This document shows, in pieces, positions 50,956 to 51,676 of a stretch of 51,676 nt of DNA. The position numbers and the translations under genes were made by a program. Source of the stretch: a phage. Within the stretch, counting starts at the first letter, position 1. Every line of letters starts with the position of its first letter. The stretch lies in the sequence record PZ534514.1; one strand, written 5' to 3'. A model generated the notes under the pieces. It saw only the letters and a list, made by a program, of their open reading frames with translations. It did not search any database and was not told the origin of the DNA.

Positions 50956-51676
50956 ATGGACGCTCAAGGTTATATCACTGGATACGACACGAAATGGCGA
51001 GAGCAACTAACGCTCATTCGCCCTGGTGCAACTATTGTATTTTTAACTCAGCCGTTGCAGATTGCCGTGATAACTGAAGTTATTAACGATACAAGCATTC
51101 GTGCAATTACAACTGGTGGCGCGGTAGTTACTCGCTCAAATTACGCGATCTTGCTTCATGACTCAATAACTGTTGATGGGCTTGCTCAAGATGTAGCTGA
51201 AACATTGCGCTACTATCAGAGTAAAGAATCAGAGATCGGGGAAGCGCTGGAATTTTTTAAGACGTTTGATTGGAAGCATTATCAGGATTTGGCTAAACAG
51301 GTGGAAGAAAACGCAGCGTCTGCGAATCAAAGTAAGGATGCCGCGGCAAGATCTGCTGCTGATGCGCTTAATTCAAAGAACGAAGCAGAAGCGTCAGAGA
51401 CTAATGCCAAAGAGTCAGAAAACGCAGCCAACGCGAGCAAGATCGCAGCAAAGACGTCGGAGACAAATGCCAAAAATTCAGAGAATGCAGCCAATGAAAG
51501 CAAGATTGCCGCTAAAAATTCTCAGGATGCTGCGCTCGCTTCTCAGAATGCAGCAAAGACGTCGGAGACAAATGCCAAAAATTCAGAGAATGCAGCCAAT
51601 GAAAGCAAGATTGCCGCTAAAAATTCTCAGGATGCTGCGCTCGCTTCTCAGAATGCAGCAAAGACGTCGGAGACAA
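50956..51676 (+). CDS. Tail fibre protein, N-terminal part (3' partial; continues at window start)
   Basis: Frame open from ATG 50956 to the window end; a stronger RBS+ATG at 50927 is in a different frame (see findings). Confidence 0.6.
   Translation, partial: MDAQGYITGYDTKWREQLTLIRPGATIVFLTQPLQIAVITEVINDTSIRAITTGGAVVTRSNYAILLHDSITVDGLAQDVAETLRYYQSKESEIGEALEFFKTFDWKHYQDLAKQVEENAASANQSKDAAARSAADALNSKNEAEASETNAKESENAANASKIAAKTSETNAKNSENAANESKIAAKNSQDAALASQNAAKTSETNAKNSENAANESKIAAKNSQDAALASQNAAKTSET
51421..51676 (+). repeat. Tandem in-frame repeats in the fibre gene (one 60-bp degenerate unit, then 105-bp units)
   Basis: 105-bp unit at 51481-51585 repeats at 51586-51676 and matches window positions 33-137. 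Confidence 0.9.

Follow-up and report, generated by a model that had tools for sequence, protein, structure and literature searches.

A perfect in-frame 105-nt tandem duplication in a lateral fibre shaft gene marks the opened ends of a circularly assembled T1-like phage genome

The phage record PZ534514.1 comprises 51,676 nt, the whole of which was analyzed and is called the window here. Its last and its first bases lie in the same reading frame and in the same repeated stretch of a tail fibre gene. This arrangement raises the question of how many repeat units the fibre gene contains, and whether the position of the sequence ends reflects the assembly, the architecture of the fibre, or the physical ends of the DNA in the virion.

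The window is a circularly assembled whole genome that was opened inside one gene. By its sequence, the phage is placed among the T1-like coliphages (Drexlerviridae, Tempevirinae, Hanrivervirus). The first 25 kb show 96% nucleotide identity to the Hanrivervirus phages Fulano1 and grams; this part is covered to 80% or more by 38 phage records. Across the junction of the window's ends, the gene order is primase (49832-50827), fibre, open reading frames of 249, 107, 163, and 85 aa, and minus-strand open reading frames of the size of SSB and Erf. The succession of primase, fibre, and 249-aa reading frame is also found in the interior of contigs from annotated relatives and in the contig L009, so the two ends of the window adjoin on the circular map. 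The fibre frame starts with the ATG at 50926, leaves the window at its end, resumes in frame at base 3, and terminates with the stop codon at 1446-1448 (Table 1). Antisense frames across the junction contain short open stretches only. The joined protein falls into tail fibre families (PHROGs). In its present form, the record breaks an essential structural gene in two and holds 123 redundant bases; gene callers will therefore return two fragments, and the length of the genome is overstated (51,676 instead of 51,553 bp).

Table 1. Coordinates of the fibre gene, its repeats, and further features in the window
Feature	Position	Strand	Basis
Lateral tail fibre gene, 5′ part (N-terminal anchor, aa 1 to ~115, and start of the shaft)	50926-51676	+	ATG, translation, PHROG
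Lateral tail fibre gene, 3′ part (rest of the shaft, collar motif, receptor-binding region, S74)	1-1448	+	
Ala/Ser heptad shaft, first part (aa 121 onwards), continuing at 124-257 after removal of the overlap	51286-51676	+	
Older degenerate 63-nt repeat (21 aa, three heptads), overlapping the start of the perfect array	51376-51506	+	Tandem Repeats Finder, 81% matches
Perfect 105-nt tandem array at the window's end	51445-51676	+	232 nt, 2.2 copies, Tandem Repeats Finder
Continuation of the array at the window's start (unit positions 5-105, then 1-38)	1-139	+	Exact overlaps
Redundant terminal copy, 123-nt assembly overlap, duplicated at 1-123	51554-51676	+	Exact overlap
C-terminal intramolecular chaperone, Peptidase_S74	1077-1445	+	PF13884, 28.2 bits against a cutoff of 22
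Terminase large subunit gene	25360-26928	-	PHROG terminase families
Terminase small subunit gene	26928-27620	-	PHROG terminase families
AATAGCACTTTTTGTTAAAAC motif	6507, 17328, 21088, 36310, 37448, 37945, 39995, 40671	+	
AATAGCACTTTTTGTTAAAAC motif	29571-29625, 30950, 33468, 34441, 34904, 45783, 46803	Reverse complement	
GC-rich hairpins with T runs (AAAGGGGCGCAAGCCCCTTTT), intergenic	3437-3463, 3928-3954, 6814-6840, 17387-17413		

The array at the window's end has a period of 105 nt with 100% matches, no indels, and a score of 464 in Tandem Repeats Finder. The periodicity breaks off exactly at 51444 on its upstream side and diverges downstream at base 140, after unit position 38. The unit consists of 35 codons, lies in frame, and encodes AAKTSETNAKNSENAANESKIAAKNSQDAALASQN. 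The junction from one unit to the next reads …TCTCAGAAT/GCAGCAAAG…, and the full unit in front of this junction carries GAA at positions 52-54. A run of at least 127 consecutive matches at a lag of 105 cannot arise by chance. At least two units are thus arranged head to tail and in frame, with 2.2 copies contiguous at 100% identity, and since these copies lie within the window's end, the minimum is independent of how the ends are joined. The original prediction had described perfect, in-frame 105-bp repeats in the fibre gene, which is borne out by the repeat search and the reading frame. It had also placed the end and the beginning of the window within the same repeat unit, as is confirmed by the 123-nt overlap and by the period that continues through positions 1-139. 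The array that it had delimited to 51421-51676 is real, but this span starts 24 nt upstream of the perfect array and inside the older, degenerate 63-nt repeat. The 63-nt repeat of the fibre shaft is also present in the relatives L001, L002, L006, L008, and L009.

The number of copies depends on how the ends are joined. Exact overlaps between suffix and prefix of the window exist at 18 and 123 nt only (123 = 18 + 105). When the 123-nt overlap is removed, the result is a 51,553-bp circle that has 2.36 copies and encodes a 691-aa fibre. The possible joins can be compared by the spacing between the conserved motifs AETLRYYQ and K[ED]YADSINP in the fibre protein, which is 63, 98, 119, 126, 154, or 189 aa in comparable proteins and a multiple of 7 in 18 of 19, these 19 proteins being related to each other and thus not 19 independent events. 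The 691-aa reading has a spacing of 189 aa (27 heptads), as found in five relatives. If the window were instead an exact circle without any overlap, the plain join would also stay in frame and would yield a 732-aa fibre with an insertion of six residues, TKTSET, at the junction. Such a circle would have to create an exact 18-nt duplication precisely at the window's ends, and its spacing of 230 aa (6 modulo 7) breaks the heptad register that is kept at 0 modulo 7 in 18 of the 19 relatives. It was rejected on account of the duplication at the ends and the register shift, and we give it next to no credence.

The lengths of the periodic stretches point to the way in which the window was assembled. 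The terminal periodic suffix measures 232 nt, which equals 105 + 127, and when GCAG (unit positions 1-4) is prepended to the window, its first 127 nt become identical to its last 127 nt. A simulated circle that contains two full units has exactly 17 repeated 127-mers, all of them within the array, and one with a single unit has none. At three or four units, repetition extends to all 105 phase classes, and entry, loop, and exit are the same as with two. The window corresponds to a circular path through the k = 127 graph that takes the loop once, minus 4 nt. This is most simply read as a circle with 2.36 copies that was assembled with a de Bruijn graph at k = 127, where we infer the assembler, k, and the exact number. 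In the proposed mechanism, the identical copies and an array longer than k + 105 would present a de Bruijn assembler with a loop at which the contig breaks, and the 123-nt terminal overlap would be the remainder of the 127-nt k-mer overlap. Four bases, GCAG, are apparently missing at the window's start in comparison with 51445-51448, leaving an overlap of 123 instead of 127 nt; trimming and the manner in which the window was cut are candidate causes.

From two copies upwards, the k = 127 graph does not change with the copy number, and additional collapsed copies are therefore possible. Perfect repeats that exceed the read length are commonly collapsed in assembly, and a real genome with at least three copies, in which too few walks through the loop were taken, would have the same graph topology with two, three, or four copies. 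Moreover, the 18-nt overlap is exact and in frame, and the 3.36 copies that it implies give a 726-aa fibre that is in register, with a spacing of 224 aa (32 × 7). On the other hand, 123 nt is the largest overlap, the contig end corresponds to exactly one traversal of the loop (232 = 105 + 127), and the spacing of 224 aa lies above that of every one of the 19 comparable proteins, none of which exceeds 189 aa and five of which reach it. We consider three or more copies rather unlikely.

The best-supported copy number remains 2.36, for which the size of the largest overlap, the 105 + 127 arithmetic, and the shaft length of the relatives speak; it is taken from the assembly and the relatives rather than from reads. 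As a whole, a circular T1-like genome that was cut in a recently duplicated heptad shaft, with 2.36 copies and a k = 127 overlap, is the likely explanation of the locus. The original prediction that the copy number cannot be read from this sequence holds insofar as the graph is the same for two or more copies, but at least 2.2 contiguous copies are demonstrated and the evidence favors 2.36. The 691-aa and 726-aa readings as well as both gene fragments have no exact match among ~15 billion proteins, so the copy number is not fixed by any independent assembly. Likewise, the unit junction and a 46-nt piece of the unit have no exact match in IMG/VR or the JGI metagenomes.

Repeats of this type had also been named as a common site of assembly collapse, with which it agrees that the records MG065669 and MG065675 are opened in the heptad-repeat region as well. 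MG065669.1 (L006/L010) is split seamlessly within the heptad repeats of the fibre, and MG065675.1 (L007/L012) ends in them with ambiguous bases (Ns). Both are labeled as Campylobacter phages and marked UNVERIFIED; they actually belong to the Tempevirinae. A further record, MF564201.1 (L005/L011), was opened slightly upstream in the N-terminal part of the fibre gene, so that its annotated fibre CDS lacks the N-terminus.

The relatives contain the same 105-nt unit in different numbers: 0.36 copies in Fulano1, 1.36 in P0001/L008, and 2.6 in P0011/L009, compared to at least 2.36 in the window. In the protein, these steps appear as spacings of 119 aa (Fulano1), 154 aa (P0001/L008), and 189 aa (P0011/L009), which correspond to zero, one, and two units. 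The copy range of 0.36, 1.36, and 2.36-2.6 sustains the expectation in the original prediction that such repeats are prone to expansion and contraction and could vary the length of the fibre shaft. The unit in the DNA of P0001/L008 has one mismatch to the window unit; L008 is a short SPAdes contig with 4.5x coverage, and its single copy could itself be collapsed. In P0011/L009, 2.6 copies at 98% identity are located well inside a 51-kb MEGAHIT contig.

P0001 (656 aa) is the closest protein, with 93% identity in aligned columns, and has exactly one 35-aa unit fewer than the window fibre. This, together with the perfect identity of the window copies, would fit a duplication that is an artefact or stems from a population mixture, with a dominant genome of 1.36 copies as in P0001. 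Such a genome would, however, hold no repeated 127-mer and so no loop to traverse, 2.2 copies are contiguous in the window end without crossing the junction, and the independent contig L009 contains 2.6 near-identical copies in its interior. An artefact or mixture is therefore regarded as very improbable.

Two further comparisons concern the register. Among the family members, P0005 (589 aa) alone departs from multiples of 7, with a spacing of 90 aa; its N-terminal helix runs straight into the repeat (…EALEFLKTSETNAK…), a fusion that points to either a deletion or a chimeric assembly. In a looser test on 112 proteins, the first Pro or Gly after the N-terminal motif falls into one residue class in 52 of them, a result of little weight because many shafts contain Gly and these proteins are related to each other.

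With the duplication taken as real, its origin may be traced in the relatives. P0010 and B1.3 hold two diverged 35-aa units at the position of the array. In the window's lineage, either one unit may have been lost and the other re-duplicated, or one may have been converted into the other. At unit position 53, the two copies of the window have a private C-to-A change (Ala to Glu) in common, which occurs in none of the relatives, so the duplication or homogenization is recent. The likely route would be unequal homologous recombination or replication slippage between the older, diverged units.

The unit fits the architecture of the shaft. In the 691-aa reading, 25 heptads make up residues 121-295; position 2 is Ser in 22 of them, and position 6 is Ala in 23. 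The 25 heptads contain neither Pro nor Gly, and their autocorrelation peaks at 7, 14, and 21. One 105-nt unit encodes 35 aa and thereby exactly five heptads. The AlphaFold2 model of the N-terminal window fragment comprises a small β-domain (residues 3-76) and two helices (84-113 and, without a break, 116-248), with pLDDT values above 90 over residues 120-220. The model of the C-terminal fragment extends the helix by 83 residues and is poor overall (mean pLDDT 50.5). Both models represent the two window fragments as monomers, not the joined 691-aa protein. From heptad pattern and models, the shaft is predicted to be an α-helical coiled coil, and by analogy with the triple helical bundle of the depolymerase DpK2 and with fibre biology in general it is probably trimeric. 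A coiled coil has a canonical rise per residue, and by this textbook geometry one unit would add about 5 nm of shaft.

The locus thus presents a phage fibre shaft that changes its length in whole structural units (35 aa, five heptads) with the heptad register kept. The series of zero, one, and two copies supports shaft length as an evolvable parameter of lateral fibres. Shaft length may affect adsorption, and the copy number matters for any host-range prediction or engineering with this fibre. It is also conceivable, if improbable, that the array is unstable and that a single stock mixes fibres of one, two, three, or more units, whose reach would differ in steps of ~5 nm. A T1-like phage would in that case spread its chances over hosts whose O-antigen or capsule layers differ in thickness, and the heptad-quantized lengths among the relatives would be the fossil record of array instability.

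The identical ends of the window have to be distinguished from the ends of the virion DNA. In T1-like phages, packaging proceeds by headfuls that start from a pac site, with a redundancy of ~1 kb or more (PMC11447400, PMC13164509). For TLS, another member of the Tempevirinae, a redundancy of ~1 kb and partial permutation were shown (PMC11447400), and no fixed termini were found for KanT1 by PhageTerm (PMC13164509). In the present genome, the pac site would be expected near the terminase genes at 25360-27620 and hence ~24 kb from the junction, a position deduced from the related phages. The window ends are identical over 123 nt, which amounts to one internal unit plus 18 nt in the middle of a structural gene. 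The identity itself is the only point in favor of a true short direct terminal repeat, with virion ends inside the fibre gene. Such a repeat would be built from the internal array and would grow to 127 nt upon the addition of 4 nt, it would interrupt a structural gene that is uninterrupted in the relatives, and it would contradict the pac headful packaging without fixed ends of the T1-like phages, including TLS (PMC11447400, PMC13164509). A short terminal repeat was rejected on these grounds (its composition from the array, its place within a gene, and the packaging mode of the family) and is considered extremely improbable. All that the overlap shows is the closure of the assembly into a circle; it is no evidence on the physical ends. 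The original prediction had read it as consistent with a circularly permuted, terminally redundant genome; this use of the overlap does not stand, as its size is that of repeat and k-mer, it lies mid-gene, and it attests to nothing more than the closure of the circle. The genome probably is permuted and terminally redundant by virtue of family membership, not of the overlap.

Outside of the shaft, the fibre resembles its relatives to varying degrees. It would be composed of five parts: an N-terminal anchor, the shaft of Ala/Ser heptads, a collar, a receptor-binding region of mosaic make-up, and an S74 chaperone that cleaves itself. Residues 1-120 are nearly identical to those of Fulano1, grams, B1.3, and Henu8, and 39 of the 40 columns that are invariant in 34 homologues lie within residues 13-101. 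Similarity to the Klebsiella phage depolymerases 7LZJ/7VYV extends over residues 1-195 and involves their N-termini (E ~1e-54); a Foldseek search with the N-terminal model found nothing significant in the PDB (best E 0.028). At the other end of the protein, the PF13884 match spans residues 569-629 of the 691-aa reading. Ser569 (1077-1079), Asp570, and Lys574 (1092-1094) are invariant in 35 homologues and include a Ser-Lys dyad with the lysine five residues on, and the S74 domain is accordingly annotated here as a putative self-cleaving domain, whose predicted autoproteolysis would release it once the trimer has folded.

In Drexlerviridae, the lateral tail fibre locus is located between the primase/helicase and the recombination (Erf/SSB) genes (PMC8594841, S1C Fig), and according to the BASEL study the lateral tail fibres are conserved only at the far N-terminus (PMC8594841). 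O-antigen has been proposed as the receptor of these fibres, which is likely and has never been directly demonstrated (PMC8594841). The receptor-binding part of the window fibre (window 486-1331, nt 1114-1959 of the joined gene) shares ~85% nucleotide identity with the fibres of 3sent1, a T5-like Salmonella phage of 109.7 kb, and of the Escherichia phage EC167. Fulano1 and grams, the closest whole-genome relatives, possess different distal fibre modules. The sequence similarities indicate an exchange of fibre modules between T1-like and T5-like phages.

Other repeated elements occur between the genes of this genome. An intergenic motif of ~21 nt, AATAGCACTTTTTGTTAAAAC, is present in at least 13 copies in both orientations, as counted by eye from the repeat families. 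It resembles the intergenic 21-base repeats of TLS, of which there are 18 upstream of start codons with a function that is an open question (PMC11447400). The GC-rich hairpins with T runs (AAAGGGGCGCAAGCCCCTTTT) look like a shared design of intrinsic terminators, judged by their sequence. Similar hairpins are situated on both sides of the fibre gene (~50840-50870 and 1465-1490).

Taken together, the locus conforms to the existing knowledge of fibrous proteins whose genes contain internal repeats, and to a known type of assembly artefact. Streptococcal M proteins vary in size, and the length of the adenovirus fibre shaft depends on the number of its repeats. Both are fibrous surface proteins that are unrelated to the phage fibre and come from unrelated organisms, and they likewise change their length in whole structural repeats, through recombination between tandem DNA repeats within the gene and with the register kept. 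The size variation of M proteins has been observed experimentally within lineages, whereas the length variation of the phage fibre is derived from the comparison of assemblies only.

Closer in sequence are the depolymerases DpK2 (phage RAD2, 7LZJ) and Depo32 (phage GH-K3, 7VYV/7VZ3), which share a homologous N-terminal anchor and the start of the helical bundle. In the cryo-EM structure of DpK2, the N-terminal region forms an extended triple helical bundle, for which modeling at high resolution was not possible (PMC8552709). In DpK2 and Depo32, the helical part is short and is followed by a distal β-helix depolymerase, in contrast to the tip with an S74 chaperone in the window fibre. The L-shaped tail fibre pb1 of T5 and other S74 fibres likewise possess a C-terminal S74 domain with a Ser-Lys dyad, and a link of T1-like fibres to pb1 has been noted before (PMC11447400). 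Compared to pb1, the window fibre is much shorter, has another N-terminal anchor, and carries a plain heptad-helix shaft.

The lateral fibres of other Drexlerviridae (among them Fulano1 gp35, grams gp61, and those of the BASEL phages JakobBernoulli and KarlJaspers) are encoded at the same primase-recombination locus. They have, as here, an N-terminal part of ~120 aa that is near-identical, a shaft of Ala/Ser heptads, a collar motif, and an S74 domain, and several of them contain receptor-binding modules unlike that of the window fibre. The window differs from these fibres by the perfect 105-nt duplication, where the relatives hold zero, one, or diverged copies of the unit.
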